Positions 26,777 through 52,400 are shown, counted from the first letter of the stretch. The stretch: 64,000 bases of DNA from Euglena gracilis (GCA_039621445.1 CP154954.1:36317703-36381702), one strand, 5' to 3'. Notes: generated by a model not told the origin, from the sequence alone. Program-made: numbers and translations.

Positions 26777-26777
<1 letters not shown>

Positions 26778-26909
26778 CCAGGCATTTATGGCGACTCCCA
26801 TTTTGGTGCCACAGTTGGCCCTGGTTGGCAAGTAGTCGGTCACAGGTGGGGGAAACACAACAAAAAATGAGCGCACATCACAGCCATACAATGCACAATT
26901 TTAAGCATG

Positions 26910-29584: not shown

Positions 29585-31965
29585 TAAGGGGGGGGGTCGA
29601 GTGAAATAAAGTTGTATCTAGCCCGGCCGGAACCGGGCCAGCCGGCCGCCGGCTGGCCAGCCAAACGGGCTGCCCAGCTCACCTATCCCTGCATTTTTTC
29701 ATTAATTATTAGGCTGTTCCTTCAGTCCCGATCCAGTCTTGATCTCCATCCAGCAAAATGTCGAAAATGGCGAAAAATTTTCAGAATTTTTTGTTTTCCA
29801 TTGACCCAGCCTAGCCCAGCCCCCACAAGTCCCAGACCCCCCCCCCATTTTCCCCGGGGGGTCCAGCAGCAGCTCATTTCCTTCCAGCAGCCTTTTTGCC
29901 AGCCAGAGGCTGGACCCCCCCCCCCCGGGGTCCTTAAGAAATGGGTAGAAGTGGGTCCTACCCACTCCTGCTTTTCCAAAAAAGAAGCGCCATTTTTCAC
30001 TTTTTTTTTGTGAAGGGGGGGACAAAGTCATTTGGAGAAATCTCTCTCGGCTTTCCCCCTGCAACTGTTATTTGGGAGGAGGGGTTCAGTGCTCTAGCAT
30101 AACGCCCCTGGCACTGAAGACGCCAGAGGGCCGAAAATGCCATTTTCAATGGAGGATCGGCTTGGTCGGCAAGGCACTAGCAAAGCTGACGGGGGGGGGG
30201 GGGGTGCCTCCTATAGGGCAGGCACCCCATAACACAAGGCACCCCTTGGGGGTTGGTAAAAAGAAGCCTGTTTGGTCATGATTTTTTTTTGTTGATTAAA
30301 TTGCGGTTCAAGATTAAATTGTTAAGATTAAATTGCAGTCCAAAGGTGCGAACGCATGAACCAGAGTTCATTCCAATGGCTTTGAAAAAAAGATTCCATC
30401 AGTATTGATCTGATTGCTGCATTTTTTTTCGGTGCAGGGACGACCAACTGGTGAGGCTGGACGACCAACTGGTGAGGCTGGGCAACCAACAAATTTAGGT
30501 GAATTCCTGAAGTCTGGGAGGGCGCACAGGAAATTTTCTTGAGTCATTTCTCTGCAAAAAGTCATTGGAATACCCGGAATAAATTCCGGAATATTCCAGA
30601 ATAACCCGGAATATTCCGGAATAAAACCCCTGAACAAAAATTTCCACCAACCGGAAAGGTTTCCTGGCCCTGTCGAATGACATTCAAGAAAGATTTTGAG
30701 CCTCCTCAAACGACATTTGAGGAGGTTTTCGAGCCTCCTTGAATGACCTTGGACGACATTTGAGGAAGCTCGAGAGCCTCCTCGGATGTCGTTCGAGGTG
30801 GTTCGAGGAGGCTCGAAAGACTCCTTCTACGGTGCATCCTCCTACTGTAACGCTGCCGGTGGATGAGTGCACGTCAATGGGTGGGTGGGAAGCTGGGTTT
30901 GTCGCAGCTGATGAATAATCTTCTATTTGTGATTATGGCCACCTCCCCAAGAAACCAGTGTTTTTACTGATTCCTCCCTGCACAGGCAGCTCAGGCCCTG
31001 CTGCAGCCACCTCCAAGGTGAGAAGCCCTGGGACCCCTTCGAGTCAGGAGACCAGAGCCCCTGGGTTTGATCCGCCTCATCCTCCATCATGGAATTGTCA
31101 TTGGTGATGCTGTGCCAGGGCAACTCTGCATGTCTTCCTCGAATGTTAGCTGCACTCATTTCCGGACGGACTCCTCCCTCGTTCCCGCATCACCGCACCT
31201 CGCCGGTGATGGGAATCTGGAGGGGTTTCCCCCCATCGCTTTCCCAGCATGGGTTGATGCCCACCCCGGCGGTTTCTGAAAGCCCCTCCGCCGCAGGATT
31301 CCTGCCACGTCTGATGTGGCGGTGTTCCTTTTCTCCTTTACATGACCCCAAAGGGACCCCTGGGGCCATGACGTCATCCCCCACCGACCCCCACCCCTGG
31401 CTCTACGCCAACCTGGCCCTGCCGCCCAACGCCACCTCAACGTCCCCACCCGGCCGTTCCCATCCCATACCCCCCCAGCCTTGCATGACCTGCACTCTTT
31501 CTGGGTGGGTGGGTGGACAGCTCGAGAGGTTTCTACTGCGCAAGTGACCCCTCCCGCAACCAGGCAGTTAGCCGTTGCCCAAACATAATATTGTTCAAAC
31601 CAAAAAGAATCATATTTTGCAGGGAACTCCCAAGGATGAAAGGATGATTTTTTTTGTATGAAGTAATTTTGGCAGTGAAAGCTTTCTGACCACAACAAAT
31701 AGTGATAATAGTAACAATAGTCAAAATAGTAATCATGTTTTTTCATTAGTAGAAATGGTGATAAACAGTTGGGACTGGCATTCACCAGGAAGGGGAAGGT
31801 TGTTTGCCATTGTCGCTGTGGCACGCGGTGCGAGGTCCCTGTGTGGGGACGCCCGCCCACAACGCGCCCCGAAGCGGAACCGCCGGCGCCGGCAGAGGAA
31901 GCGGCGCCACCACCCCACGACGCGCCGAAGCCCCCGCCGCCCCGGTCCCTCTCCTCGGCCCCGGC

Positions 31966-32575
31966 GCGGGCACCGTCCAGGGAGGGCGACCCTCCCCCCG
32001 AGGAGGCCTCTGGTCCCAGCCCCGGTCCGGTGGTGGCAGCGCCTCGGTTGTCCCCCCCCCAGGCATTTGTCGGGCACGGCCCGGGGGGGGGGGGGGGGCG
32101 GGGGGGGCTGTCCACTGCCGTGCCGGGGAACCCCTTCCTCCCTCCCTGGCTCCGGGCCAGGCTGCTGTCCGCCCTGCCGGCCCCGCCCCAGTGGGCGTCC
32201 GCCAGGGCCGGGCTTCCCCCCCCCAACCGTGCGGCCCAAGCCTTGTCCCACTGGTGTGCCACCGGCAGCCTAAACGAGCTCGCGGGGGCGGGGCCGTCCA
32301 CATGACAGGGGGGATCCACCCCCCCCCCCCCGCCCCGGGCCCGGCGTGCCCTCGCCTCCGCCGCCCGCAGCGCTCCTGCCGATGCCGGACTGGCTGCAGC
32401 CCCGGCCCACCGCCGCCGCCGCCACCGCCACGTCCTCCACTGCGGCCGGAGCAGGGGCCCCCCGTGCTGCCCCCACCCAGCCCACAGGCAGTGGGGGGCC
32501 CCAGGCTTTCCCGGACCCTGGTCACCTCGCACGCACACACACCCACACACCCACACCCACACACACCCACACACA

Positions 32576-32648
<73 letters not shown>

Positions 32649-32695
32649 CACACACACAACACACACCCACACACACACACACACACACACACAAC

Positions 32696-32727
<32 letters not shown>

Positions 32728-32959
32728 GCGGGCACCTCGTAGCAGGCACCTGTCGCTTTCGAGGAACAGAGGTTCCGAATCGTAGGCATGCACAAATCAA
32801 CCCTGGAGGAAGTGGCCTTGCCCGCCGCTGGCCGCGCCGCCCGTGGCCGCCGGCCCCGTGGCCCCGCCCGCCCGGCCCTGCGCAGTCCCGCAGCCCCTGT
32901 TTAACCCCCGGCCCGTCTCTGTGCCCCTGCCGAGGACTCTGCCCAGGGAAGAACGATGC
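31966..32959 (+). repeat. Segmental duplication, copy 1 (GC-rich exon-like sequence plus CA microsatellite)
   Basis: Near-identical to 33627-34463, from CGGGCACCGTCCAGG to CCCAGGGAAGAACGATG. Confidence 0.9.
32533..32727. repeat. (CA)n microsatellite
   Basis: Direct reading. Confidence 0.95.
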
Positions 32960-33626
32960 CCTTTGGGATAGGTCTTTACGCCTTTTTTCTTACCCCAGAT
33001 GGTGGGGACCGGGTTTGTAGCGTATTATTCTCCAAAACAAGTCCAAGACAAAGAAGCATTGCACCAAGCTTGGGAGCTATTCTTTTTGCGTGAAGGGCAA
33101 ACTCATGTAAACAAAATCACATCTGTACAGAATGTACCCAACCCAAGGAGAAATAATCATCAGGGGCTGAAAAAAAATTGGTTTATTGAAAATACTCCCT
33201 GTGAAATTAATTGCACATATATGCATATTTTCCACAACAGCAAACAACAGCATTTTTGCCACAGAGCTTATGAGTTAAGGCGTTTTGGGAGGATTCCACT
33301 TCAGTGGCTGGAATATCAGAATCCCTCGTTGGCTCAGCATCGAGGGGGGGGGTAAATGGCATTTCCAGGACCTCATATAATGAATATCCCAAATGAGTGT
33401 GCCGAACTGTGGTAAAAAAAATGCAGATTTCTTTGGGGTTTGGCTTGTCTTCCACATGGAAGTGTGGAAGTGGAAGTGGATTGGGAGCCTTCCAGATCCA
33501 CCGTATCAAAACGGGAGACAGCTCAAAAAAATTGTTGCATTTGACAAAAACACAAAAAAAAATCCCATATTTCTTGCCCGTAACCTTTTTCCCCTGCGTT
33601 TTGCCCGAGCGTTTACTCCGATCGCA

Positions 33627-34463
33627 CGGGCACCGTCCAGGGAGGGCGACCCTCCCCCCGAGGAGGCCTCTGGTCCCAGCCCCGGTCCGGTGGTGGCAGC
33701 GCCTCGGTTGTCCCCCCCCCAGGCATTTGTCGGGCACGGCCCGGGGGGGGGGGGGCGGGGGGGGCTGTCCACTGCCGTGCCGGGGAACCCCTTCCTCCCT
33801 CCCTGGCTCCGGGCCAGGCTGCTGTCCGCCCTGCCGGCCCCGCCCCAGTGGGCGTCCGCCAGGGCCGGGCTTCTCCCCCCCCCCAACCGTGCGGCCCAAG
33901 CCTTGTCCCACTGGTGTGCCACCGGCAGCCAAACGAGCTCGCGGGGGCGGGGCCGTCCACATGACAGGGGGGATCCACCCCCCCCCCCCGGCCCTGGGCC
34001 CGGCGTGCCCTCGCCTCCGCCGCCCGCAGCGCTCCTGCCGATGCCGGACTGGCTGCAGCCCCGGCCCACCGCCGCCGCCGCCACCGCCACGTCCTCCACT
34101 GCGGCCGGAGCAGGGGCCCCCCGTGCTGCCCCCACCCAGCCCACAGGCAGTGGGGGGCCCCCAGGCTTTCCCGGACAGCCCTGGTCACCTCGCACACACA
34201 CACACACACACACGCGCGCGCGCGCATGCGCGCACGGGCACCTCGTAGCAGGCACCTGTCGCTTTCGAGGAACAGAGGTTCCGAATCATCGGCATGCACA
34301 AATCAACCCTGGAGGAAGTGGCCTTGCCCGCCGCTGGCCGCGTCGCCCATGGCCGCCGGCCCTGTGGCCCCGCCCGCCCGGCCCTGCGCAGTCTCACAGC
34401 CCCGGTTTGACCCCCGGCCCGTCTATGTGCCCCTGCCGAGGACTCTGCCCAGGGAAGAACGAT
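33627..34463 (+). repeat. Segmental duplication, copy 2 (shorter CA tract)
   Basis: See copy 1. Confidence 0.9.
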
Positions 34464-35543
34464 GGAAGGCAGGATGGAAGGGGGAAGAACAATGCCCTTC
34501 GGCATAGTTCGGCAGCAGGGGAGGGCCACCCCACAGGGGTCGGGCAGGGGTTTGGGGTTCAGCACTGCTTGATGAGTCAATTTGGACCTTGGTGACCTAA
34601 ATTGTTTGGTTTATGAAAGTGAACATAAATATAAAAAAAACCAAAGGTCATTGTATTGAATTTTTGAGGGTAAACAAAATCATTCTAGCCATTCAGCAGG
34701 ACAAGCACAAATGAATGACCGCATTGAAGATCTGGAGAGGTCAAGGCTGCACAGGAAGGCCTGGTGAGGCGTTACACCCCGCACCTATGCTGCCCATAGG
34801 GTTTCGGGGCTTCCTGATCCCTTCTGGTTCCGCGCAAACAGATTGCCAAGAAGCAGCAACCAAAATCTGCTATTTTGGAAAACATCCCAAAGAACAGTTC
34901 TGAAAGAGTCATTGCCATGGTTCTGCCAACCGGTTTTTTGTTGTTGCGAAAATTACATGCATTTTATGAATTCCACAGGGGTATTTCCAATAAAAGGAAT
35001 TTTCAGCCCTGCTGATTTTTCCTTGGGGGTTTTCTGGTATTTTTTTTTTCAGTTTCTTCTGTACAGACTTGTTTTGTGGCTGTTGCACATTGGTTTGCCC
35101 TTCACGCAAAGAAAATGCCCCAAGTTTGGTGCAATGCTTCTTTATCTTGGACATGTTTTGGAGAATGAGTCGCAACAAACCCGGCCATTACCATTAGCCA
35201 ACAGACAAAGATGCCTGGATGACTGGAGTAAGATTCCTCCAGCATTTTTTTTAAAGTCACCTCATGTCCGAAATATCCCAGAATTAAAACCCTGAACGAG
35301 GAATTGTGGCACGCAGGATATGCCCCCCCCCCCTCCTGTTGAGCGGGCCCCCATCTCCGTTCCCCTGCCCCTGCCTCTGGTCCCGATCTTTGTCAGCCAG
35401 GGCTGGATGCATTGGCCGTTTGCTTTTCGCCGGGTTCCTCTCCTCTGAGCCCATTCCTCCATGGAGCATGGAGCATGTCGGACGGAGGGGTGAGAGAGCA
35501 GTGCCTCCGAAATCGACCCACTCAAATCCACCGTAAGCAAATA

Positions 35544-35804
35544 CCGGGGGGGGGAAAATTTTGCCCTAGAGAAAATTTGCGCGGACAAATTTCGCGGAAG
35601 CAAATCCCGCGAAATATTTCCGGGCATTTTTAAGGAATCCCGCGAAATTTTTGTCCATGTATTCCCTTTCACGCCATTTTTGCTTCACAGGAAAAAAAAT
35701 CCCGCGACATATTTCCGGACATTTTTAAGAAATCCCGCGAAATTTGTCGTCCGCGAAATTTGTCGCCGCAAAATTTCTCTGGCACAAAATTCCCCCCCCC
35801 CCGG
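35544..35804. mobile_element. MITE with TA target duplication
   Basis: TA-CCGGGGGGGGGAAAATTTTGCC...AAATTTCGCGGA is mirrored by TCCGCGAAATTT...GGCACAAAATTCCCCCCCCCCCGG-TA. Confidence 0.85.
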
Positions 35805-36379
35805 TATGACATATTGCCGCCGTAGGGGGCAGGTCAAATACCCCTCCCCAATTTATCACCTCGACCAAGGAGCCAAAAAAAGACTGATAAGTAATATTGA
35901 AGGGAAAAAAAGTGTCCACCCTCTGGACACTGGTTGTGCTTTAGAGGTTCTCAAACACGCCCGACGAAAGGGAAGGGGAGTAATAGATTGGACCAGATAG
36001 TGGGTGTTCCACCTGGCAAGGCACTGCCACCGCCCAGGAGGTTGCCTCGCCGATTTCTTGTCAACTCCACACCAACGTGGGATGGTCCGAGCGGTCAGTT
36101 CCGCAGTCTGTGGGATCGTGCATAATCGTTGCGAATGCAGTGAACAGGCAACGGCGTTCGGCGTTCGGCGTCCCTGGGTTTCTGCAACGAATACCCACCA
36201 GCGCCAACACCCACAGTTGACAATGCAGAAGGAAGGCCAGCTTCGCTCTTTCTTTTGTGATTTGTTGATATTTCGCCGAACCCCCCAAAAACCAGCAGAG
36301 GAATTGGGAGAGAATTGAAATCAAATGCTTTTCGCAGTCCCTGGATCCCCCCCCCATGTGGTTGACTGTGACGCTTCAG

Positions 36380-36869
36380 CAAGGGGGATATGCAAGTTGA
36401 CACTTTGCATTTTCTTTTGCATAATCCAAATCTTGAAAATTTGCACTTTTTTGCATAATAAAGAAAAAGTTGAACATTTTGAACAAAGTCGCATTTTAAG
36501 CAATTTTTGCATATTTTCCGTTTTTTTTCCCTGGGCATTTGTGCAGGCAACACAGGAAAATTTCTCCACTTTCAGACCACTGGAAGTTGCAATACCTCAC
36601 GTTTTTGGACCTAATTCACCTCAGTGGTAGTTGCATAGTCAAAGATACGCGGATGCAATTTGGTGAAACAACCAATATAACTTTGCAGTTTGCACCCACA
36701 TTTTCTTTTTGTTGCTTTGTTGGAGCAGGTTAATGTTTTAAAAGTCCTCTCCGGTGGAGAAGTGTACAGCCACGGGGTGCCCCTAAAGGAATTTACATGA
36801 AACCTGCATTTTTTTGCATTTTTTGCATTGCTTATTTTGAAGAGCCTTGCTGCAAATTCCCTCCCCCTG
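36380..36869. mobile_element. MITE, CAGGGGG-GATATGCA family, 7-bp TSD GCTTCAG
   Basis: GCTTCAG at 36373-36379 and 36870-36876. Ends are CAAGGGGGATATGCA / TGCAAATTCCCTCCCCCTG. The interior is homologous to 53743-54232. Confidence 0.8.
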
Positions 36870-37429
36870 GCTTCAGCTCGCCGGCCTCCCCCACCTGCTC
36901 CCCTCCCCACCCGGCCCTGCCCCCAGCGGCGTGCCCCAACACTTCCAGCCCCCCGCCCTCCTGCCGCTGCCAGCCCATCAACATCCCCGGCCCACCGCCC
37001 CCGTCCCCGCCGCCGCCACGTCCTCCACGGTTGCCCCGGCGCTGGGGGCCGCTTCGGCAACGGTGGCCCCCAACCGCGGCGCTTCAGTGACGTTGGGCAG
37101 TGGTGTAGGGTGTGTGTGGTTCAGACAAAGTCGCACCTGGAAGTTTTTTTTAAAAGGAGGGTTGTGAAGAAAAAAAAACGTTTTTTGTGGGTGTTGGGAG
37201 AGTTTCAGTTGAAATTCTATTGGATTTGCCAGGATCTCATTCAGGGGGATTTTGGTGTTCCATTGTTGGTGCAATTACACCCCTGTTTTTTTGGTATTTT
37301 CGTGTTCGTAGTATCATCCAAGCGTTTTTCAATAAAATGGAAGTCGGAGCTCAACAAATTTCCCCCAAAAGTTAAATTATTTTTTGAAACAAATTGTCAG
37401 CTCAGGATGGCCGGAGGCCCGGGGAGGCG

Positions 37430-40400
37430 CCGTGCCCCACCCCGGGGGGCGCCCCGCTGCCCGCCGCGCCCCACCGCGCCTTCCTGGCCTCCTTCGACGC
37501 CGCCACCCAGCGGGCCCTGCGGGCGATCCGGTCGTGCGCCTGCGACCACGCGGAGAAGGACTGGGCCAGGGGGGCTGCCCCCAGCGTGGCATCGGTGGCC
37601 AGAGCCTTGAGGCAACCCCATCCTCGGCGAAGAGCAAAAAACATTTTTTTCCTTCCACGGTTCGTGTTTTACGTGGATCGACTCTTGGTTGGCTACCTGA
37701 CAGCTCTCGGTGGATGTCTGCATGGGTATCGTCTGCTTGGGGTATCGTCAAGGTGGTGCCCATTTTTTTTGAATGGCGTTGCTTAAGAAAATTTGACCAC
37801 AGGGTCCAGCCAGCCAGCAACTTTTTTCTAGCCCCCCCATCCATGTTTTATTTAGTTTGCAGCCACCCGAAGGCGGCTGGACAGTTATGGATTTTAGGTG
37901 CAAAAAAAATGGGGTGAAATGGTCAAAAATAGATCGGATTGGGCTGACCAGGGATTATTTGGGGTCAAAAAAATTGATTTTTTTAAGTCTTTTTTGGAGT
38001 TTCGATTTTTTTTTGGAAAACCCCCTGGGGCTTTATTTGGGGGGGTTATTATTTGAAAATCCATAAGACCCCAAATTACACCCAAAGCCAACCTTTTTGG
38101 TCATTTTCTGCATTTTTTTTGCCAAAAAATTAATATTTTTTTTGGAGGCCAGACCACAGAAACTCATTTTTTGGTCATTTATTGCCGTGATTTCTTATTT
38201 TCAAATGCAGTCGCAGATTGGGGGGTATTATTTTTTTCGGTTAAAGTCAGACCCCAATGGGGGGGTTATTTGGGGGAGGGTTTACCCAGTTTGACCCTGG
38301 GTCTGGTTGGGGGGTCAGCCAACAGCCTTTTTCCATTTTCCAAGCCTCTGAGCTGGACCCCCCAGAGAGTCTTTGAGCAACACCCTGATCCCCGTTTGAA
38401 CCAAGATTTGCTTGTTGAGGAAATGGCTTTCTGCCCATTGCTGTTAAAACAGCTGCAACCTGCAGCTGTTTTCCGCCCACCACCACCTCTGCCCTGCCCT
38501 TTGTTCCCCGGTCCCCCTGCCGGCCGACCCATTCGAGCCTCATGGGCGGCCGGGACTTCCTCACCCCGACCGGCAAGCTGAAGGTCCCTGACGAGCTGGC
38601 CCCCACCCTCTGTGAGGCTGTGGCCAGGCCTACCCAAGGTGTGGGCCGGGGTTCACACCGGGGGGGGGGTCCACATTTTGGAGGAGCTCCTGAAGTATTT
38701 TACATGCAACTTGTGATTTTTGTGTTTATTTGAGTTTATTTGTGTTTTTTCCTGTTTTTTTTTGTGTCACGTTTTTTTTTTAGGCACCAGGTTGCTTTCC
38801 TCCCCCTGGGGGCAGGGAAGCACTCTGCCATGGGCACGCCCCCCCCCCCCCCCCCCTTTTGCAAGGCCCCGGGGGCCAGTGCGTGCCACCGCGCTGGGCG
38901 ACCACTCACGCCCCCGCCCCCCGCAGCGCCATGCAACCCTGCTGCGTGGGGAGCCAACCCCCCCACGCTAGCCCCCCTGCCGGTGAGCATGTGGAGTGCA
39001 CCCCCCAGCGCCATGCAAACCCAAATGGGAACCCCCCAAAAATAAGACCCCCCCCCAAAAATAACCCCCTGGCCGGTCCCGAGCAAAAATCCATGAAATG
39101 GACCCCCCCATGAATAAGACCCCCCCCCCGCGAAGCGCCAGATTTTTGAAAAAAGGGCCATTTTGTGTGTTGTAAATCTGTCATTTGGACAGTTTTATAC
39201 AATTCAGCATTTTTTTCCCCTATTTGTCTGGCTTTGCGGCGCCGAAATGGTATTTTGGCATTTTTGGCCATTTTTGGGGAAAAATCGAAAATTCCCCAGA
39301 TGAAATGGCCCCCCCCCATGAGACCCGACCCTCGGTTTTAGTGTTTTTGGGGGTTTATTTTTTTATACCGCCACGCAGCGGTGGCACCACCCGTACAAGG
39401 AAGACCCTCGCTTTGCTGTGGTCCGCAGTGTGCATGCCACCAAGCAGGTGCAATCCCCCAAATGTGAATCCACCAAAATTCATCCAATTTTTTTTTGCCA
39501 AAAGAAGCTATTTTTTGTTCACCAGAGAGAATGAGAGATTTTTTTCATCGCCTTCGAGGTGCAGACATTCAAAGACATCATGTGCAATATTGCAATGTCC
39601 CAAAAGTCAATTACCGTTGCTATTTTCATGGGAACCCTCCCAAGGGCCCGAACTGGGTGTTCTTTTTTGACCAGTCGGCCGGCATTCCTGCAGCTTCACA
39701 CGTTGTGGGGGAACGGTTTGGGCGGCTGAGGGCCCCACTGGAAAGGCATGTCAGTGAAGCCCGGCGCATCAGGGGGAGCCCCTGGCCCAGCCCCCCAACG
39801 AGCTGTTGCACAACGCCGCCGCGGGTCCCCCTGCTCAGACGGAAAGGAAAGACGGTCGGCACACTCACCGTGGTTTACCGCGGTGAGCCTGTCCAATGGG
39901 CCGCAGAACAGCTTGGAAAGTGGCAAAGGACACCTTGGGCAACCTTTATTTTGAACATCACCATCATCGGTGAGTTGAGTGAGTTCTAAATCAGGGAATT
40001 TCTCAAACCGGACCCAACCTACCCCTGGCAGGGGGTCCGGCGAGCCAGCACCTTTTTTCCTGCCAGCACTCCCAACTGGGCTGCAGACCCCCCCCCCAGG
40101 GCGTCTCTTAATCCCCCCCCCCCCCCCCGGGGGCGGTGCTGCCAGCCAGCAGCCTTTTTCCAGCCCCGGACCCCCTCCCCCCCCATCGTCGAATTTTACT
40201 TATTTTCCAGCTGTCCTTTGGGCAGCTGGATGGTGATGGGTTTTTGGCGTAAAAAAATTGGCAAAAATGAGTTGGATTTGGGCTGGCCAGGGCAAATTTG
40301 GGTTTAAAAACCGATTTTTTTTGCATAACTGACAGTTTTTGGGGCATATACCGGAACCACCGCTGCTCAACACCCCCGAACAGCAAAATTTTGGCGATTT

Positions 40401-43400
40401 TTCAGCATAAATCGGGGTGGGGGGGCGTGGTTTTCGGGGCCAGATTGCCTCAATGCCAGGAACTGGGGGGGTGCCAAAGCGTACGACCAGCCCCCGGGAC
40501 CAGGTCAGCTGGGTTCCCCACCCCCAAACACCCATTATCACCGGAACCACTGCTGATCATTTTGGAGTTTCGATTTTTCCTCGGGTTGAGCCTAGTTCCC
40601 TCCAGGGAACCCCTATGGGGGGAGAAAGGGTGGGGGGGGGGGAGGTGTTCGGGGTTCAGTTGGGGGTGTTCCCCCGACCAAGGGGGGGGGCCTCCCACCT
40701 GCCCTTATATCAAAGCTTGATCTGAAGGACGTCGTCCGATGTCCACGCCCCCAACCCCAAAGGCCCATTGTCTTCTGCACGCCACCCCAAAGCCATCCCC
40801 GATGTGCATCGCCGGCCCCGGCATCAACGCATTGCCATCCCGGGAGGCGTCGCCCCCACCTTCCGCCCCCCCCCCCTCCCCCGCTTGGTGGGCAGGCGGT
40901 CCCCGGGGACGAGTTTGCGTTCTGGCGGTTCCGGGCCCGCATCCTGCTGGACATGTTCCCGTGCCTGCGGCCGCTGCGGCTGTTGCTCTTCACCGGCAGC
41001 GGCTGGAGCAAGGAGAAGGACTGCCCCGGCCGGCGAGGGGCTCTGGCGCCGCAAACTTGCCTTCGGAATGGTGTGTGTGCCTTGTGCTGAAACACACACA
41101 CATGCATACACACAATATGTGCATTGGTGTGCGCATGGACGCATACTCCAAAAAGCATATGCCTCTCGTCGGCGCCAAGACCAGCTTCCATTGCGTGTGG
41201 CCCGACATCCACGTCGACACGGAGCGCGCCCACGTGGTGCGCCTCAAGACGGTGGGCCAGGCCCGATACCCCGATACCCCGATGCCCCGATGCCCCGATA
41301 CCCCCACTACACCACACTGCACCGTGACGGCCGGGTGGGGGGGGGGGTGCCCCCATGCGCACCGGCCCGGCGCCTGCCTCGGACGTCCTGAACGCCGCGT
41401 CGCAGGGGCCGTGGGGCCCGCTGGCCGGCCTCTCGGCCAACCTGCTGGCGGTGATGGCCGACCCGACGGGCCGCGTGCCACCCCCGCCCCCGGCGGAGCT
41501 GTGGAACGTCGTGTTCGACATCACCGCCGTGCGCGCCGCCCGGCCCGCCATTGCCGCCTTGCCTCCGCCTTTCCGGCCGTTCGCCACGCTGTGCCTGGGA
41601 GTTGCATGCTGACAGGCAGGCAGGCAGGCAGGGGTTTCCTTCGGCCGGAGAGGACACTCCCCCCCGGGGGGTCCAGCCAGCTAGAGGTTTTTTTTCAGCA
41701 GGAGGCCCCATCTGGGCTTTGGACCCCCGCGGGTTCACTGAAATAAAGTTGGGACTGGGAAAAAAAATGGTTTTCGGCACAAAGCACCGTAAACTCTGGA
41801 ACTTGGACAGCGCAAACCAGTATTTTCGAGGGGTTTTGGGTGTTCCACCTCAAATATTTGGTTGGAAAATCCAACCCAGCTGGATTTGGGGTTGCTTGTC
41901 CGTTTTCAGGTATCCCTCAGCCGGCCGGACCCCCCACGGAAAGCTTGAGCTTGAGCAGTTCCATTTTACACCGTGATGTAACACTGGGGGGTTTCAATCA
42001 TTATTTTTTTTGATTTGCTGTAAACGCCCAGCAATGGTCAACCTTTCAAGTGGCAATCTGTCGGAGGGTACATCTTCTGCTCTGTACACAGAGAGCTTCA
42101 TACACACATGTGCATATTTGTGTGCGGTGGATGTGCATTTTTGTTGTTTTGTTGCGAGAAATCATTGATTGCAGGTGGCGTCAGGCATGAATGGCGGACT
42201 GCCACAGGAAGCCTGAGGATGCCACTCAACGACAAGTGGCACCGCGGGACGCACCGGCGTGAGGGCAACCCAGGGGTGGCGGCAACGCAGGTCCAGCCAT
42301 CACTTTGAGTGTCGCTGAGGGCAAGGCAGGGTTCGATATAAGGAGGGCGTTCAAGGTGAAGGTGCGGGTGTACCCCCTGCTGGACTGGGGGACACCCCAC
42401 CTGACCCACCTGCCAAGGGGGGGATGTACCCGGGACCCCCCAAAACGTCAAAATTTTCCTTCTGGCGTTTTGCGCCGAAAATTTTTGCATTTTGGACAAA
42501 TTTTTGCCCAAGAAGTGCCCAAAACGGCATCTTTGGCCGTCTTTGGGGCAGAGATTTTCGGTCCAGCAAATCGCGCCAAGACCGACAATCACCGACACCG
42601 GTGACTCTGATTTTGATTGACACCGGTGACACCGGTCACCGGACTGCGCCTGTTTAGGGAAGGGGTGTCCCTTCCCTCCTGGACCGAAGAGGGTTCTGAA
42701 CTCCTCGGGCAAGGACCACCACCCCATTTTTCGAGTACCATTTCTGTGTAGTTTATCTTTTATACTGGGGTGAGATTTCAAGGTTTTTATTGGGGGGGGC
42801 ACATTTCACCCTCAAAAATTCGGGTCCAGAAACACACGTGTGCTTTCCAACATTTCTTAGCTGGGCACCATTTGTAAGGGAAAATGATGGTTCACACTGA
42901 ATAACAAAAAAATTGCCACACAATGATATTTTTTTCGTGATTTGCTTTTTGCGATTCCATCAGGGGAGGGGAGGGGAGGGGCGTGCAGCTCTGATTTTAA
43001 TGTCCTGGCAGGGGGTTGTGATATCCGGGGGGTCACAGCAGTGCGCCGCCCCTGCCCCCGGCCCATCGTGCCCGTGGGGGTGTTCGACTTCGGCGTGCAC
43101 CCGCAGTGGCCCGCCAGCCTGCCGGTGATGCGCCAGGCGGCCCAGCCGTGGGAGCTCCCGGAGGCGGAGTGGGTCCGGCTGGGCAGTGTCCGCCGCAGCC
43201 CGGAGGTCCCCCTGCCCGGGATGGCCATGCTCCCTCTTTGCAGCCGACCGTCACTGAGGTTGGGATAGGTCTACTTCCAACTTGGTCACCATTGTTTTGC
43301 CCAGGTTTGTGGTGGCATCACTGCAATCAATTTCTGGTGACACCCTGTCCGTGCATACACCCTCGCACGCACGCACACGCGTGCACACATACACACAACG

Positions 43401-46400
43401 TACAAACAGAAACACACACACACACACACAGAGAACAACGCAGCACAACACAACACAACACAACACAACACAACACAACACAACACAACACAACACAACA
43501 CAACACAACACAGCACAGCACAGCACAACACAGCACACGAACATACAGGCACACACAGTGCCCACAGCTTTGCTCTGAGACAAATCCTTGGCCACCCCGC
43601 CCCCAACGCCGTGGATCACGCCCAGACCTTAACTCGAAGGTGCAACCCTGCCAGACTCAAATGGTACAAAAATGACGTTGATCAGCATTGTGAATTTTTG
43701 GTCATAACATGTGTTTCGAAACCGACAGAATCCCATCTTTGGCCATCTTCCCCCATCTTTGGCCATCTGTCTCTTCACTGAAACGGTTGCCACCAAACCA
43801 TCCCCTCCGTTTTATCGTCGGCCGCCAACCCAACTCCAACGTTGCCATTCCGATTTTCGAACTCAAAAAAAAAACTCACCCCACCCCCTCGGGCCATCAC
43901 CTCCCCCCACCCCCCGGCCCCCGGCCGGGGTAGGGTCTGGCCCCTCCCATCCCCCACGCCAGCTGGCGGGCGCGGCGCCGGCCGACCGCCCACAGCAGCG
44001 TCCGCCGCCGCGCCAAAAGTTCACAAACATCTTCTGTGGGGAGGGGTGACAAATTGGGCAGCACGGAGGGGGGTGACAATTTCCCAGGGTGACAAATTGG
44101 CCCAACGTTCCCGCTGTTTGAGAGACAATCTCTCTCGAGCAAATACACAAGAGGTGTTCAAGCATTTTCCCTCGCCATAGTTGTTTTGGGGCCCTTGTCC
44201 TACCTCGGATTTTTTTGGACTTCAAAAAATTCAGGAGTTAATAACCCCCCCCCCCCTGGGCCGGAAAATAATACCCGGGGGGTATTATTTTATTATTTTG
44301 GGAGGGGGATTCAGATGGTGGGACACTGATTTGAAAAGGCATCTGCAAACCGCCACATTGGGTGGGACACGGCCAGGGAGGCGTTGGAGAGCCATTTCAT
44401 TTGCAGTGTTCGGCCCGAGACCCCGGCCCCCGCCCCGAGGTGGCTGGGGGAGGGCAGGCCTGCGGCACAGCCGGCGCTCTGCGTCCTCCGCCGTCTCCGG
44501 GGCGGCGGCCCTTTTTGCCGACACGGCTCGATTGATCTTATATTTCGCTACAACCTGCTGAGAAATGTCACATACCAAATGCTCTGCACAATATCACAAC
44601 CATAGCTGCATTTTTGCGTGTTCACTGGTGTTTCAGATGGTGTTCTTGGTCATTTGAATTTAACGTGGCCTACATGGGTGGGCAATTGACGCCCCCGGGC
44701 AATTGACGCCCCCGGGCAATTGTCACCCCCCTCTGTGCCGGCCAAATTGTCACCCCGGGAAATTGTCACCCGTGCTGCCCGATTTGTCACGCGACAATTG
44801 CCCGGGGGGGCGGGTACCAATTTTTAAAGTTCTTGTGTGGTTTTTTAAGGCCCTTAAAAAGAATATTGCCTACCGGCAACACGTGGGAAGTCCTTTGCAG
44901 GGGGATATTTACTCCTCGGTCGAAGTCCGACCCTCAGGGACATTATTTTGGGTGGTTTTACTCCCACTTGATGTGTGCCTCCCCCGTCGTGCACACCAAA
45001 ACTGACACCTATGGATTTTGGGGCTGCTTCCCACTCTCCATATTTGCACATTCATACCGACCATCTCCTGCCGACCAATGAAAATGCTTTTTTTTGCGCG
45101 CTTTCTGTTCAAGCTCAAGTATTGTCAAGCAAGGTCATGGTGCTGAATTTACAAAAAATGAATGCTGCAAATCGCATAGTGTCATCAATCGTTGAGAAAA
45201 GTGGAAAGTTTACCCACACCCCCCAGTCCTCCTCCCACCTCCTTCCCCCAGCGGCCTCCCCCCCCCCCCCCGCATTTCATTCACAGGCCCCACCCCAAGC
45301 CCAGCCCTCCTCCCCAACCGTCCCCCTCCCTCTTCCATCGTCCTCCCGCGCCGCAGGTTCACGGGGCCGCCGGAGGCCCTCATGGCCCACCTCGACGGGT
45401 GCTTCCCGGAGGAGCACCTCGGCACGCTGCAGCAGGTCCCCGGGGGGGACTGGGTGTGGAAGCGGAAGGGCCTGAAGGGGGCCGTCCCCGCGGGCCGCCG
45501 CCTCGGTTGGGGCGCAGCAGGGCTGCTGTTCACTGGGCTGCGGGCTGGGCTCCACCACCCCACCTGCTGTGTGTTGGCGACCAACCGCAACTGCAAATTA
45601 ACTTAATTAGCTTAATTACCTTAAATAGCTGAAGAAGAATAAAAACAGGCAAACCCTGGAGGTTTGGCTTGGGCGGTTCTACAACCCTCCCAGATGAACG
45701 TGTCATCACAGCAGAACCTTAGTGTTTGACCATTCACCACCACCGGAATGTCCATGACATACATGCTATTTTGAATTGCACACATGCCAGATGAAAGCAG
45801 TGGGTTCCGACTTCGTCTCCCCCTCCTTCTAGTGCCCCTTCCGGCCACTCATTTTTAATCTTCAGAACGAAGCGTGACACTGCTTCCTCCTGGCCGCTTT
45901 AAAATTTTTTGGGAGTTTCTGTTGCACCTCCTCCTGCCCCTCATTTCTGCCGATTGACGTCCAAAACGAAGCGGGTTTTGGCAATCTCCGCTTCCCCTTC
46001 TCTTCCCATCTTCGCTAAAACCCCCATTTTGGTCATTTTGCATTTTGGCGACTCGGCATACAGTGGAACTGGGCAATGACGAAAAGTTGTTTTCGCTTCG
46101 CCTGAAAATTTTGTGTACTTTTCGCCGTCGACTTCCACTGAAAGCATGCCCCTTTTTTGCTCATTTGGGCCTCTTGTAGAAATCCAGTACTCCAAACCAA
46201 AACGGACTGTTCCAAAAAAGGGTAAAAATTTTTGGGGGTCGAACGAAGCGGATTTCCACTTCCTTCTCCGCTTCAAACCTTCAAAAATTTTTGGGCAACT
46301 TACGAACATGCCCAACCTGGCCCAGCCTGGTCCAGATGGGGCCTTGCAAAATGACACACGAATGCAGGGGGAGGGAGGAGCCAGGGGGGGGATATGCACC

Positions 46401-49400
46401 GTGCAGTTTTTGCAGTTTTTTTTTGCAGTTTTCACGTTTTGGGTTTTTTTGCAGTTTTTTTTGCAGTTTTTTGCAGTTTTTTTTGCAGCTTTTTTTGAAG
46501 AAGAAAAAAAAACTGCACAGATGCAGTTTTTTGCAGTTTTTTTTATTCCAATTTTGAGGAAACCTGACATGTCTGTTTTTTTTTGGTGCTGGATTATATG
46601 TTTTGAAGGGTGTTTCTCAAGAAAAGGCATCATCTCTCAGGAGTTGTGTTGTCTACAGTTATCCCACCAATTGTTTTGCCCCCAACTGTCTTGCCAACTG
46701 CCTTGCCTCTTAAACAACACAGATTAGTGCAGCCACCATTCCAAAAAAACAACAACAGATTGTCTCGGTGACAAGACCACAATTACTCCCCAACCAAAAT
46801 TGCTCCATCTCCAGCCTGTGCTGACAGATGTGACGATGCTCATTTTGGCAAGTGTCATTTGTGCACTCCTGAGCAGATTCAACTATTTATGTCGGGATTC
46901 CTAGGGACTAAATACAAAAACTGTTTTTTTTTTGTGCAAATTTTGGTTGCAGTTGGAGTTGAGGATTTCGAAATTCATGGTGCTGCAAAGGAGCTTCTGA
47001 AGAAGATTGGGTCTTGCCCCAAGCATTGTGGCCAAATGTCACATAAGCCAAATGCTTCAAAGAGCAAGAAGTTCTTTCTTATTTGCAAGAAATTCCCAGG
47101 TTGTAGACCATTTGGCATTCCCCTAAGGACAATGTTCAAAGTTTGTGGTGGTTTTTGTAGATTTTTTTTCATCGTGACATGGGGAAATTTTACCAGGTGA
47201 TGGACCGGAAGTTCCAAACTGAACATCCCCTGCAAGAAATGAAAGCATTGAAAATTTCTGTGTATGGGTAAATGTGCATTTTCCCCATATTTAGAAAGAC
47301 AGCCGTTTGGCATCTTTGTGGGCATGGTCGGCACAAGTTTTGATGCAGGAAAACCGATGTGACCCGGCATCCGGACACATGACTTGCATTTCAGTGCATG
47401 AAAAACCATGCACAGTGCACCTTGATTGATTGCTCCCATTTTTGTCGTCATCGGCTCCAAAGCCGTGCAAAAAAAAAGTTAGGTGAATTGGGGCATGCTC
47501 ATGTGGTAGCAATTTACGTTGTTTTGCATATGCATACCCTTTCAGCTTGTTTATTGTTATTTTTTGTTGAAGTGCAGTTTTTTGCAGTTTTTTTTTGCGG
47601 TGCAGTTTTTGACAGGCCCGTGCAGGCCCGTGCAGTTTCTCCCCCTGGAGGAGGTTTAGAAATGTCTTATGGGAAACTTGGTTGTCAACGAGTTGTTGTG
47701 ATTTGGCCCAGTTGTATTGCGGGACACGGAATGCCGTCTGGATGGTGCTGCAGCCGTCTTGTTTAATCCCTGGAACACCCACAGCTGTGCGCTTACAAAG
47801 GGAATGTGTTGTGCCCTCCTGACGAGCGCCGTCATGGCCCCGTGTGGGGCATTGCGGACATTGCGGAGCGGCACCTCAATTGAATGGGAGAGGGAGGGCA
47901 TCAGGGACGTTTTTGGCCAAATGTGATGGGTCTGAAGTTTTTTTGTGGGTTCAATAACGAGCTGGGATGCAGCATTGTGGAAGACGCGGGTGGTCCAGAG
48001 AGTGACCCTTTCCTGACATGAATATGTGGAGTGGCATCCAGCCTCAGTCATGAAGGTTTGATTTGAGCCGCTTCCTTGCAATGATGGGGGATGCAAGGGG
48101 GAAGGTGCTTGCCTGCCACAACACAGCGATGCCAACAACAGCAGCCGATTTAATTTTTAAGTCAACTCTGACATCCAAAATTTTGAAAAATTTTTGCGGT
48201 GCTGCTTTCGGGATCTTTGCCCAGTCAAATTTTCATTGGGCGGCCTAAGTTTGGCCTGATTGGCTTGTCACCGACCACAGTCAGAAGAAAGGTGTGGCGT
48301 GGCTTGCACCGCCTCACAACCTTGGAGGGTGTCGGTGACAATTCTGGGCGCTCAGGGGAGGGGATCCAGCGAATTGTGACACTGAAATTCTCAGGCACAT
48401 CAGAATGCTTTCATAAAAACCAGAATAACCTTCCGCGGCGGGGCAAAACGGTATTTTGTTTAGGAATTCTCGGATTCGGATCTCATAAACACAGTTAAAA
48501 ATATGAAAAGTCGCTTCTTGCTATGATGCCAAAAATTTTGGTAAGATTTTAGTTTTTCTTGTGGTTGTGGAGTTCTTTAACACAGCAACATCTTGGAGAT
48601 AAAACACTTGACCCATTCGAATCAGCCCACATGTATTTCATACCTTTAGATCGGAATGGTTTGGTGGCCATGAACACGGACACACTTTTTCCGTGGTTAT
48701 GTGCACGATTAGTTTCCTGTTTGTGATGAAAGCAGGCCGTTTCCAGGCTATTTGAAATCGCACTCTTTTTGACTCTGTTTCCACGCTTTTTGAATCTGGG
48801 ACACCCAGCCACCGATTGGATTTTCAAATGGCAGCCTTTAACTACTGCCCCCCCCCCCCGGGGTCCAGTAAACCCCCCCCCCAAATAACACCCCCCCCCC
48901 CGGGGGCCGATTTCGAGCGCCCAAATAACACACCCCCCTGTTTTCCTTCGGTTTTCCATGTAAAAATAACACCCCAAATAACACCCCCCCCCGGGGCCCC
49001 AGTTCGGGTGCCCAAATAACACACCGGGGGGGGGGGGTGTTATTTGGGGGGGGTTTAGTTAAACGGGGGAGGTAGGTCCACATTCTTGAGCACAAGCTGA
49101 GGGGGGCTTTCGACGACACGTTTTGGCTGTTTGGTGGTGTTCGTTATTTTTAGGGGCAGGGTTAGGGTTGCAATTGTTGTTAAGAAAGGGATTATGGTTA
49201 GGGTTAGGCCAAAGTTAGGGATTTGGGCCGAAATCAGGCCTAAATTTAGGCCTGAATTAGGCCGAATTTTAGTATTAGGCCGAATTTAGCTGAAATTTAG
49301 GCCAAAGGCCTAAACCCTAACCCTAACTCTATTCCCGAAACCTCACCCTAACCCTATTGTTTTCAATTAACCAAAAACCTAGCCCTACCCCAAGAGTAGG

Positions 49401-52400
49401 CCTTTCGTATTACCCCCCCCCCCAATTAAAAGCCCCCCAGGGCCACTATTCGGTCAGTCTGTGGAAAACCCGAGGGGGGGGCTTCTGCCATTTCTCAAAA
49501 AAAAAAGCAAAGTCTGTTATGTTTGGATATATTGTTTAACTTGAAGGATTTGCTATACTTAAAAAATGTCTATTTTGCACACAGTTGTATCAAAATGGTA
49601 CCCTCCCCAAATTCAGGGGTTATTGGTTTGAGGTTTATGCTGATTTCTTTTTGTACACTTTTTATGCCCAAAGTACACGTTTGTTGAAATTTTTTGGTGT
49701 TTTGCAGTCCGTCGTTTTTTTTTTTAATTTGACTCCAGAAACGGGGCGTGACCCAGGCTTGGTGCACAATTGGGGCCCGCTTCAAAACGCCGGGACCCAA
49801 CAGGATATGTTTGAAACCGGCTCGCCTCGCGGTGATGCCGTTGCATCAACCGGTGTAGCACCGCCTTTCTCGTCCTGGCAAGGCAAACGTTGAACCGTCG
49901 GGTGCCGGGGCCTCCCTGTGGGTGGGGCGGCGGCCCGGACTTGCTACTCCCCCGGCCTGGGGCTGGTCCGGGTGCTGGGCAACCCGGAGCAGCAGGTGTT
50001 CATGCTGGACCTGTGCCAGAGCCAGGCCCCTGCTTGCCCTTGAGTTTGGGAGAAGTGCATAGTTTCTTTGACGTTGCTGGGATTTATTGTTTGAAGAAAA
50101 GTATATTTGTTGAGAACTTGGCACTGTGGAGAAAATTCTTTTCGGCAAGCATTGTACCTCCCCCCCCCCCACCTTGTCTAAGCACCATCCTTGTCTAAGC
50201 ACCCCCCCCCCGGTTCTTACCCATCTTTTTAAAGGTCATCGTCACGGGGATGTTTATTTCGTGTGCATTTTTAAGGGAAATTTCTCAAAAAGGTCGAAAT
50301 TTCTGCAACTTCTGAGACCTGATTTGGTGAGGTATTGTTGATTTCTGCATCCAAATGTGTGTAAGTTCAACATTGGACCTCCAAAATAAGGGGAATTTTT
50401 CGTTTTCAGCGCGAAGCGCCGGATTTTTTTTTTTGCAGTCAAATTTTCCCTTTTGTCAAAGCACCACCCCCCTGGTTCTTACCCATATTATGGCAGCGCC
50501 CCCCCCCCGGTTCTTACCCATCTTTTCGGTGCTTAGACAAGGGGGGGTTATATTGGTTTGCATTATTACCCCATCAGGGTGTCATTTTTTCCGCCCGGCC
50601 CAGGGGGGAATTCTTTTTGGGGGGGGTTAACTCCTGTATTTTTTTGAAGTCCAGGAAAATCCGAAGCGGGAGAGGGGCCCAAAAAAATGATGCAGCTCCT
50701 CCCTAAATAAGTTTTCGATTTCCTCCTGCCTCGCAAAGTTTCTTTGCGGGGAGCAGAAAATTTTCGGTCAATTTTTTTTGAAAAATCAACAAAAAGCAAC
50801 GGTGCATTCAGCAGTGCAACCCCTGGTCTGCCCTTTGTGACACTTGGCGGCAACACATGCAAAGTCTTGGCGGGGGGAGGACAGGGTATTAACTGAGTGT
50901 CGGTTTTGCACAGGGGAGAGTTGGGGGGTTTTATTTTTAGTTTGCGAAAGTTTACTAGATTTTTCTCACCAGAGGATCTCTCAAGTAAATTGCGCGTTCC
51001 GATTTATTCGTGAACAGTTGTTTTTTTGACACGATCCTTGGGTGATTATTTTGGCCTTTTGACTCACTTGTTTTCTGAAAATGGATTGTGAACCCACACC
51101 CGAGGGCCGGCCAGCAACGGCGTGGCCCCGGCTGGACAACGCCGTGGGAAGGCGTGCGGGGCGACCCTTTCCCACACCGCCGTCCCCCTGCGCTGGCGTT
51201 GGCGCGGCTGCCACAGACCCCCCCCCCCCCGACGCGTTGGCCCCCGGTCCATCCTGGGAGGGGGAGGGGGACGTTTCCTGCCGCCCCTTCGGCCCCACCA
51301 ATGCCTCCCAACAAACCACCGGCCATTGGCACCGAGCACCCCGCCCCCCCCCCCCGCCCCCTGTGACGTTGGGGGGCTCAAAAGGGGGGCCCCGGGGCCG
51401 CGCTGCCCCAGAAGCCCCTCGTCCCCGGCAAGGGCAAGGGCAAGGGCAAGGGCAAGGGCAAGGGCAAGGGGGTGAAGAGGAAGGCGGCAGCGACAGTTGG
51501 CCCCCCGGCCCGACGGCCGCGGCTACCCAGGGGGTGGCAGGGGGCGGCCTCCCCCCCCCCCTGGAATGCCCAGTGCCCACCAGAGTGACAAAACTCTAAA
51601 GCATCAAGGTGAAACCAAGGACAGAGGCCTCCAGAAGGCGGTGAACCAGTTCAGGCGGTGCCCCCACGTGTAAGTGGCAGGCCCACCAAGGTTCTGCTCC
51701 TCCAAACAGTGCCGTGTGCAAACTCTGATCCCTACCCATCTTTTTATCAAGGTCATCTGTGTGTGCATTGGAAGATTAAATTTAAAAGCCTCTGGTGAAG
51801 TAGCGTTTTCATATCTGCATACCCCCCCCAGTTGAACGCATTTTGACCTTTGAAATGTCTGGCAGATTTTTTTATGATCAGGTTGCCTCCCCATGTCTGA
51901 GCATGAGTGGGTCTGATTATGTTGCCATCTGCTCTCGCTGATCCATATTTCCGCCATCCATTCCTTTGCACTTCTCCACTTATCTATCTGACTTCTGAAG
52001 ATTTTGGGGTCAGTTCTTTCGTGATGCGTGGTGCGGGGCTTTCTGATTATTATTTTTTTGCAACGGTGGACTAAGTCCATTTTCAGCTTCTTTTGTTGTT
52101 TGTTGCTCGGGGCCGCCAGGCAGGGGCCGCCAACCCCCCCCCTCCCGCCCGCCCACCAACCCCTGGCCATGGCCCACGGTGTCCTCGGCGCCCTCTTCCT
52201 CGCCCGCCGGCACGGCCCCCCCGCCCCCGCCGCCCCAGTGCCCCAGCGGGCCCCCGGCCGGGTCGACTCCGCCGCGCGTGGCCCCCCCAGCCTGTCCCCA
52301 CCCTTGACCTCTGGGGGACGCACTCGAGAGCGGAAGCAGGGTTTGTGAACGGTAGTCGCTTTGGGGGAAAGATGCCCCAGAGACCCCGTGCGACGGTGCC

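Follow-up and report, generated by a model that had tools for sequence, protein, structure and literature searches.

A probable, catalytically disabled paralogue of the euglenid C962R-type primase-polymerases in the nuclear genome of Euglena gracilis

Archaeo-eukaryotic primases (AEPs) of the C962R/D5 type are known mainly as domains within the primase-helicases of giant viruses. In C962R of African swine fever virus (ASFV), the catalytic residues have been reported as Asp97, Asp99, His157 and Asp200, acting by a two-metal mechanism in which Asp97 and Asp99 of motif I bind the catalytic metals (PMC10516667). PrimPol, herpesvirus UL52 and the kinetoplastid primases PRI1 and PRI2 have been placed in one AEP clade of nucleocytoplasmic large DNA viruses (NCLDVs) and herpesviruses, PRI1 and PRI2 being described as featuring an RNA recognition motif and a PriCT-2 motif (PMC4538821), and Euglenozoa are reported to use virus-type primases for their kinetoplast DNA (PMC4538821, PMC10719067). 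The present analysis concerns an intron-rich gene, assigned to the C962R type through its relatives, in a stretch of 64,000 nucleotides of Euglena gracilis DNA (GCA_039621445.1 CP154954.1:36317703-36381702; hereafter the window, from whose first letter all positions are counted).

The gene, which is expressed and precisely spliced, is in our judgement probably a divergent and catalytically disabled paralogue in a euglenid family of C962R-type primase-polymerases without a helicase: its observed mRNA lacks the segment that carries motif I in all relatives. A literature search found, among the papers listed, no publication on a euglenid C962R-type primase family, and none at all naming EG_transcript_2404, a relative from E. 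gracilis; the match listed for Euglena and PrimPol concerns trypanosomatid telomeres.

Gene structure and nonconventional splicing

The locus is a single long nuclear gene of at least 14 kb and at least 13 exons, which spans at least 37469-51522 on the + strand as judged from transcript joints and from matches to a profile of eight relatives (P-numbers, described in the next section). RNA was mapped over region 36000-50000 from the Logan contig runs X15, X16 and X17, which were guessed to be RNA, no run containing the stretch being recorded as such, and from the raw RNA-seq run X21. The list of joints covers 15 of 119, and all statements on splicing hold among the joints listed. Stretch 38400-43400 is present in 14 DNA-type runs at no less than half of the sampled words and in six small putative-RNA runs at 0.10-0.19, as expected of exon-only content. 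Nine exons, from about 37469 to 43216, are joined by transcript contigs of three runs and by raw RNA reads, and further exons are predicted downstream, as follows.

37469-37563 (5′ limit open), + strand: exon A, ..PHRAFLASFDAATQRALRAIRSCACDHAEKD(W), the helix preceding the THSSL block; joint 37563->38526 in X16 and X17 contigs, frame open into exon B; weak tblastn match to P0002 residues 140-184 (E 0.001)
38526-38621, + strand: exon B, THSSLMGGRDFLTPTGKLKVPDELAPTLCEAV, the family-invariant lead-in; joints in X15-X17 and in two raw X21 reads; 39.4 bits to the family profile, 72.7% identity to P0003
38881-38911, + strand: micro-exon C (31 nt), mRNA frame RATALGDHSR; joints 38621->38881 and 38911->39785
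39379-39447, + strand: candidate skipped exon X (69 nt), RWHHPYKEDPRFAVVRSVHATKQ; AG before, GT after, in frame
39785-39820, + strand: micro-exon D, AQPPNELLHNAA, the family P.D.LL block with D replaced by N; joints and alignment
40697-40735, + strand: motif I relic inside intron 39821-40907, PYIK / LDLKDVV in two frames
40908-41025, + strand: exon E, DEFAFWRFRARILLDMFPCLRPLRLLLFTGSGWSKEKDC(P); joints; 52.8 bits
41175-41253, + strand: exon F, KTSFHCVWPDIHVDTERAHVVRLKT, AEP motif II (S.H); joints; 49.9 bits
41381-41537, + strand: exon G, ..ELWNVVFDITAVRA, first half of motif III with the catalytic Asp; joints; 24.4 bits
42207-42267, + strand: exon H, GSLRMPLNDKWHRGTHRREG, second half of motif III (R...NDK); joints; 15.0 bits
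43060-43216, + strand: exon I, RPIVPVGVFDF...EWVRLGSVRRSPEVPL, the last Prim/Pol strands; joint 42267->43060; 29.7 bits
43934-44026 (limits open), + strand: predicted exon J, block ..VW.SP.P...W..RR.P.A.SS over two frames; tblastn and profile matches, no transcript joint among those listed
45340-45486 (limits open), + strand: predicted exon K, RRRFTGPPEAL...WVWKRKGLKGAV; 17.0 bits; 56% identity to P0003 residues 576-625, including 12 consecutive identical residues
49945-50025 (limits open), + strand: predicted exon L, ..GLVRVLGNPEQQVFMLDLCQ; 16.6 bits
51130-51522 (limits open), + strand: predicted last exon or exons, GWTTPWEG.. and then the family-typical Lys-Gly repeat tail; 9.8 bits; GGCAAG repeat at 51427-51470 found by TRF

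When joined by their coordinates, the nine spliced exons can be read as a single open frame of 276 codons, with stops in both other frames, and exons E, G, H and I already share one reading frame on the genome. All eight + strand joints (37563|38526, 38621|38881, 38911|39785, 39820|40908, 41025|41175, 41253|41381, 41537|42207 and 42267|43060) occur in Logan contigs, each in two or three runs, and six of them also in one or two raw X21 reads. A single X17 contig of 877 nt spans the joints from exon A to exon I; it includes 29 nt of exon A, about 93 nt that map elsewhere upstream and, past 43216, 20 nt from further downstream. In the frame of exon A there is no ATG from 37388 onward, the ATG at 37408 belonging to another frame, and no match to the N-terminal 150 positions of the family profile occurs within 24600-37400, upstream of exon A. 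The locus has a host-like GC content of 0.53-0.62.

The downstream extent rests on the family profile, against which the spliced 276-residue product scores 330 bits. When all open reading frame (ORF) fragments of the window were compared with it on both strands, ten matches of at least 9.8 bits were obtained, all on the + strand between 38527 and 51522 and in the order of the profile (positions 173 to 618), whereas the best score elsewhere in the window was 4.5 bits; the ordered matches are therefore more than chance, and the gene spans at least 37469-51522.

An initial annotation, made from the sequence alone, had proposed from seven hand-spliced peptide pieces an intron-rich nuclear gene at 38521..43214 that cannot be read from ORFs. 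These points are supported, the exons belonging to one spliced RNA rather than to different transcripts and joining into one frame after splicing. Six of the seven pieces lie in + strand DNA and in one spliced RNA: THSSLMGG..GKLKVPDE in exon 38526-38621, LWNVVFD in 41381-41537, GSLRMPLNDK in 42207-42267 and WVRLGSVRR in 43060-43216, while EG|RPIVP crosses the 42267|43060 joint and LLLFTGSGWSKEKDCP|KTSFHCVWPDIHVD arises where 40908-41025 is joined to 41175-41253, the junction being exactly the one guessed. The leading P of 'PTHSS' is to be corrected to W, its codon spanning the 37563|38526 joint, and the proposed limits were too narrow, given an upstream exon at 37469-37563 or beyond and family-like exons down to about 51522. 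The seventh piece, 'PLYQ-LD', proposed as motif I, appears in no listed transcript joint; it falls in two frames inside intron 39821-40907, and micro-exons 38881-38911 and 39785-39820 stand in its place. The possibility that it is an exon, separated from exon E by no more than a short intron, is ruled out by the transcript joints.

The same annotation considered the gene fully intronised, which is right as to the presence of introns; these are, however, removed by the euglenid nonconventional pathway and are not ordinary spliceosomal introns. GT..AG ends are found in none of the eight. For Euglena nonconventional introns, a signature 5'-N3CDG-/-CH'GN5-6|R has been reported in 61.2% of cases (PMC12501133), and an E. 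gracilis consensus of CCAGG at +3 to +7 and CCTG at -9 to -6 has been described (PMC11170887). With the signature scored as coded in this analysis and 0-2 nt of ambiguity allowed at the joint, introns 1, 6, 7 and 8 match it as a whole (4/8), introns 1, 6 and 8 with CAG...CTG spaced as published and a purine opening the exon, and intron 7 in the looser C-D-G/C-H-G form. Introns 2 and 5 carry the 5′ half only, and introns 3 and 4 neither half. The 25-nt intron ends can pair with energies of -17 to -30 kcal/mol, a range given with no shuffle control. Together with the Euglena relatives, these intron borders point to a Euglena-type organism and led to the rejection of a dinoflagellate or chromerid origin, which had been considered on the basis of base composition. 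Splicing of this kind provides a way to remove a catalytic exon while the frame holds, and genes built in this manner are invisible to gene finders based on ORFs or on GT-AG borders.

Several observations were made on the introns and on predicted exon J. At 43934-43960, family-like residues occur in two adjacent frames, VWPLPSP.. and then PIPHASWRARRRPTAHSS, with a 1-nt frame change relative to the relatives inside a run of C; an error of assembly, a true frameshift or a splice site absent from the joints listed could account for it. Contig depth over 43939-44872 reaches hundreds to thousands in all three contig runs (maximum 6506), against about 5-30 on the exons, which points to a high-copy repeat inside an intron; a 17-bp unit, GGGCAATTGACGCCCCC, is found at 44680-44730 within this segment. 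Two poly-C tracts located in introns (38837-38856 and 40113-40133) draw hundreds of raw RNA reads, with 'skips 1256' and 'goes back' joints and loose poly-C ends (e.g., 261+231 reads for 38856->40113), and these joints are most likely homopolymer mapping artefacts rather than splicing.

A euglenid family with a C962R-type core

Since exons E, G, H and I share one frame, the reference stretch 40908-43217 could be read through, with stops as X, and used as a query in an exhaustive HMMER search of 1,835,955,588 proteins. Four proteins were found at E <=0.001, three of which are relatives (P0002, P0003 and P0004):

P0001, 75 aa, Logan ORF, E 7.5e-29: genomic read-through of exon I, 98% identity
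P0002, 589 aa, JGI/IMG, E 6.6e-17: four collinear stretches
P0003, 808 aa, EukProt Euglena gracilis EG_transcript_2404, E 1.7e-13: four collinear stretches
P0004, 611 aa, JGI/IMG, E 1.2e-4: three stretches

Later searches added P0005, P0006 (Euglena longa), P0007, P0008 and P0009. A word-based protein search with exon E returned no relatives, a search of PHROGs gave nothing below E 0.03 and no match with known function, and none of the eight relatives carries a functional name in its source database. Together they are a small family of euglenid and environmental proteins with a C962R-type Prim/Pol core. Their invariant blocks are THSSL.G.D..T..GKL.VP, VE(6)PY.ED.D, K.S.HCVWP and D.IT.VR.G..R...NDK, followed by a conserved C-terminal region (W..G..R, LT.W.SP.P...W..R, K.G...G.....GN.EQ) and, in most members, by a Lys-Gly tail. 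Having kept ED.D, K.S.H and D...R...NDK, the relatives are presumably primase-polymerases. Motif II is present in the window copy as KTSFHCVWP in exon F, and motif III as VFDITAVRA|GSLRMPLNDK over exons G and H; both are invariant in the family.

In a maximum-likelihood tree, the window protein groups with P0003, P0002 and P0005 with full support (100/100), while a second clade comprises P0004, P0006 and P0008, and a third is made up of P0007 and P0009. It is 48.5-50.7% identical to its nearest relatives over 272-274 columns, and its terminal branch measures 0.75 changes per site, a length similar to the 0.65 of P0003. E. gracilis and E. longa are close relatives. Their family proteins are only 41% identical and fall in different clades, and the clades are thus paralogues.

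Two relatives have particular architectures. In P0007 (EukProt, 1278 aa), a Dev_Cell_Death (DCD) domain (87 bits) precedes the AEP core and a 52-residue insert lies ahead of the SG..K.S.H block. P0008 (ENA, from a contig of 1,205,450 bases) is an uninterrupted ORF of about 258 real residues that begins at the N-terminus and extends through the first half of motif III before entering non-coding sequence; the equivalent stretch of the window has at least seven introns, and the density of introns in the family therefore differs greatly between genomes.

The assignment to AEPs was obtained on the relatives, seven of the eight passing the cut-off of PF23162 AEP_C962R (23 bits) with 30.8, 31.7, 33.3, 30.2, 26.3, 33.3 and 30.0 bits, and P0007 reaching 14.3. 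The match begins within the GKLKVP lead-in. A Pfam search of P0002-P0006, P0008 and P0009, at E up to 10 or 1, returned PF23162 only, with no match to a helicase, D5_N, PriCT-2, Herpes_UL52 or DNA_primase_S, and the region after motif III has no invariant Cys or His in six aligned relatives, which leaves the family without a conserved zinc finger. The downstream exons of the window track the family-specific C-terminal region.

The fold was modelled with AlphaFold2 on the core of P0004, a relative (318 residues, ~120-437, with seven relatives; predicted local distance difference test score [pLDDT] 71.1, predicted template modelling score [pTM] 0.77); a model of full-length P0002 built from 5 sequences had a pLDDT of 39 and was not used. 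Foldseek gave ASFV PrimPol (C962R) chains in every match listed from the PDB down to rank 37 (best E 2.2e-5) and giant-virus D5-like or C962R-like proteins at the top of BFVD (best E 7.9e-7; 22 matches at E <=0.001). Alignment of the same model by VIA-align over 48,161 representative chains gave the following ranking:

8iqb_A, N-terminal Prim/Pol domain of ASFV PrimPol: Z 12.7, root-mean-square deviation 4.0, 232 aligned of 256 residues
7jk1_A, human PrimPol: Z 9.1
9ut1_B, helicase-primase (UL52) of human herpesvirus 1 (HHV1): Z 7.5
8xig_A, AEP domain of monkeypox virus (MPXV) E5: Z 6.9
8hwa_A, D5: Z 6.9
1v33_A, archaeal PriS: Z 4.8
8b9d_O, chain of a human replisome with Pol alpha, read as a PriS-type primase subunit: Z 4.2

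In the ESM Atlas, 22 of the 30 clusters nearest to the P0004 core belong to the PF23162 set (best 0.97, 209 shared features); with this set removed only other AEP families are left, at 0.86-0.88, which serve as leads only. By the Pfam matches and the model, the family has the fold of an AEP of the NCLDV C962R/D5 kind, which resembles C962R more closely than it does canonical PrimPol and is remote from PriS.

These results agree with the initial annotation on several counts. It had called the gene a virus-type AEP distinct from PriS and canonical PrimPol, consistent with PF23162 in 7/8 relatives and with the Z scores above (12.7 for C962R vs 4.8 and 9.1). The TH..M.GG..G...VP lead-in, singled out for its resemblance to NCLDV primases, proves to be a family-invariant block inside which the PF23162 match begins. 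The noted absence of a recognisable helicase or zinc finger and the presence of a different C-terminal domain are likewise supported by Pfam, alignment and profile, a conserved family C-terminal region following the core.

Loss of motif I and its interpretation

The protein encoded by the observed mRNA has no motif I (DxD) segment: profile positions 208-240 are missing, and with them the pair of acidic strand residues that characterises active AEPs. All eight relatives keep ED.D, and no stretch of the locus encodes it. Of the 63 family-invariant columns that the transcript covers, those in the motif I segment are all lost (8/8), as opposed to 2/55 elsewhere (Fisher p 1.2e-8); the two losses elsewhere are D->N in P.D.LL and T->V before motif III.

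Traces of the missing segment are found in three places. Micro-exon C is read off the family frame: the mRNA frame gives RATALGDHSR, while the next frame gives ACHRAGRPLT, which resembles (C)Y.AGRPMT and matches P0002 residues 209-223. Exon X, which reads RWHHPYKEDPRFAVV..., matches profile positions 210-240 better than any other stretch of the window, lies between exons C and D in the expected order and adds 11 bits when spliced in; it carries EDPR where the relatives have ED.D, Arg replacing the second Asp. It is skipped in X16 and X17 contigs and in two raw reads, all of which join 38911->39785, and raw depth is 0.07 in its bin vs 0.78 in the bin of exon B, both from very small counts. Finally, the relic at 40697-40735 resembles PYIEDLDIEVV of P0004, a member of the second clade; it stands out of order, after exon D, in an intron skipped by all three contig runs. 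The initial annotation had taken the locus to encode a PrimPol-like enzyme, and motifs II and III are indeed present, but with the DxD absent from the observed mRNA the word enzyme is doubtful for the window copy. In the absence of the motif I acids, its product should fold like a Prim/Pol domain but would not be expected to transfer nucleotides.

In the interpretation that we favour, a member of the EG_transcript_2404 clade would have lost its motif I stretch, with micro-exon C shifted off the ancestral frame and the motif I exon both skipped and mutated to EDPR, while its mRNA retained motifs II and III and nearly all other invariant residues. The product might then be a pseudo-primase that acts by binding DNA, a nucleotide or a catalytic paralogue, or the gene may have lost its activity recently. 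By our own estimate, ~47% of the invariant residues would be expected to survive if the whole branch of 0.75 changes per site had been neutral, as against 53/55 that are kept, and this near-complete retention suggests that most of the branch was under constraint.

Several points weigh against this interpretation. The retention of invariant residues does not separate a constrained pseudo-enzyme from a gene whose activity was lost very recently. Some AEPs tolerate changes in motif I, and the loss of catalysis is here deduced from sequence. X15 has no contig with the 38911->39785 joint, which leaves room for an isoform with exon X, albeit one that would still read EDPR. RNA coverage is thin, at one or two raw reads per joint, and the transcript evidence includes neither the start codon nor the 3′ half of the mRNA. 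The residues in two frames near 43934-43960 could mean further decay. The membership of the window copy among AEPs rests on its relatives: Pfam searches gave nothing relevant on seven stop-to-stop ORF pieces of the window and 0 families on two read-throughs (stops as X), a PDB sequence search with exons E, F and G gave chance matches only (E >=0.07), and one with the family profile gave only Lys-Gly low-complexity matches.

The most serious alternative, which we regard as the less likely one though with a real claim to attention, is that of a transcribed pseudogene in early decay, i.e., a drifting duplicate of a functional EG_transcript_2404-like gene in which motif I happened to be lost. It is favoured by an exon C off its ancestral frame, an exon X both skipped and mutated, a second broken relic in an intron, a possible further frame change near 43934-43960, low expression and no in-frame start codon found in exon A. 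Drift is harder to reconcile with a frame that stays open for 276 codons over eight joints, with the 53/55 invariant residues kept outside motif I where neutrality would leave about half of them by our estimate, and with downstream exons that remain recognisable, 12 consecutive residues being identical to P0003.

An active primase-polymerase is improbable. It would have to take motif I from an isoform outside the joints listed, or to work with an altered motif I. Motifs II and III remain intact along with 53/55 other invariant residues, the gene is transcribed and its RNA spliced with precision, and the 15 of 119 joints listed, the lack of a C->D joint in X15 and the existence of an in-frame 69-nt exon X would allow for such an isoform. 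Against this, ED.D is nowhere in the locus, exon X offers EDPR, the relic at 40697-40735 is frame-broken, contigs of two runs and two raw reads link exon C straight to exon D, and the few reads available are far scarcer over exon X than over exon B. Least credible by far is a gene of a recently integrated giant endogenous viral element (GEVE) invaded by introns, which the closest solved fold (ASFV C962R) and the eight Asfuvirales-derived GEVEs reported in E. gracilis, one with a D5 marker (PMC12455990), might suggest, but which is contradicted by a locus GC of 0.53-0.62 compared with the 25-35% reported for E. gracilis GEVEs (PMC12455990), by at least eight host-type nonconventional introns, by relatives that come from transcripts of two Euglena species, fall into three clades and, unlike viral C962R/D5 proteins, have no helicase, by 12 long ORFs elsewhere in the window with no viral hallmark family, and by a scan of IMG/VR with the family alignment in which none of 36 pattern stretches was confirmed as a relative by tblastn.

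Beyond the preferred reading of a disabled paralogue, a broader scenario can be put forward, tentatively. A C962R-type primase-polymerase might have been captured by euglenids, or be common to them and asfarvirus-like giant viruses, with loss of the helicase, gain of a C-terminal module of its own and divergence into at least three clades of paralogues; the window copy could then have become a pseudo-primase by dropping its metal-binding exon while the rest of the fold stayed under selection, and may assist a catalytic paralogue as a subunit that binds DNA or a partner. The existence in Euglena of a cellular family with several paralogues and no helicase is relevant to how this lineage takes up and remodels viral replication parts, and the window copy offers a testable case of an AEP keeping its fold and losing its metal site.

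Surroundings of the gene and comparison with known systems

The window as a whole contains two arrays of a 213-bp satellite, both longer than 10 kb, along with numerous microsatellites and short coding pieces rich in GC, and its GC content lies between 0.45 and 0.63; a search with Rfam found 0 families in it. The satellite arrays occupy 2-12610 (59 copies, 94% matches) and 13642-24516 (51 copies, 91% matches), and their GC skews of -0.18 and +0.16 place them in opposite orientation around a unique segment of ~1 kb (12611-13641, GC 0.56). Arrays of a 21-bp repeat at 59392-59821 and 61041-61579 have units that are reverse complements of each other, and are thus inverted; when translated, they give WMCVTVR-like repeats that stay open over long distances in more than one frame. 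A GC-rich segment is duplicated at ~31700-32500 and 33400-34200, with near-identical ORF translations (e.g., GGLSTAVPGNPFLPPWLRARLLSALPAPPQW), and adjoins long CA and GT microsatellites.

Among described systems, ASFV C962R is the closest in fold. The family shares with it PF23162 (7/8 relatives), the best structural match, the same order of motifs and, in the relatives, the conserved DxD, H and D. On the other hand, sequence identity between them is only 11-15%; C962R carries PriCT-2, D5_N, a superfamily 3 (SF3) helicase and Tail, where the Euglena family has its own C-terminal region and Lys-Gly tail; and the window gene is cellular and intron-rich, with host-like GC and an mRNA devoid of motif I. 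Eukaryotic PrimPol (CCDC111) and herpesvirus UL52 give the second and third best folds, below C962R, and differ in that the family has no UL52-type zinc finger. The kinetoplastid enzymes PRI1/PRI2 and PPL1/PPL2 are also Euglenozoan proteins and have been described as AEPs of the NCLDV-herpesvirus clade (PMC4538821, PMC10719067); no kinetoplastid protein appeared among the database matches, which is weak evidence, as kinetoplastid sequences were never compared directly.

With respect to splicing, the gene resembles other Euglena genes with nonconventional introns in its non-GT..AG borders (8/8) and in the signature, whole in four introns and reduced to its 5′ half in two; it departs from them in introns 3 and 4, which lie outside the signature, and in introns 2 and 5, which lack the 3′ half. 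Its closest counterparts are EG_transcript_2404 (P0003), P0002 and P0005, which belong to the same clade and whose order of blocks its exons follow, starting with THSSL and ending in the Lys-Gly tail. The difference that sets it apart from the eight relatives is that all of them keep PY.ED.D, whereas the mRNA of the window gene has lost it.

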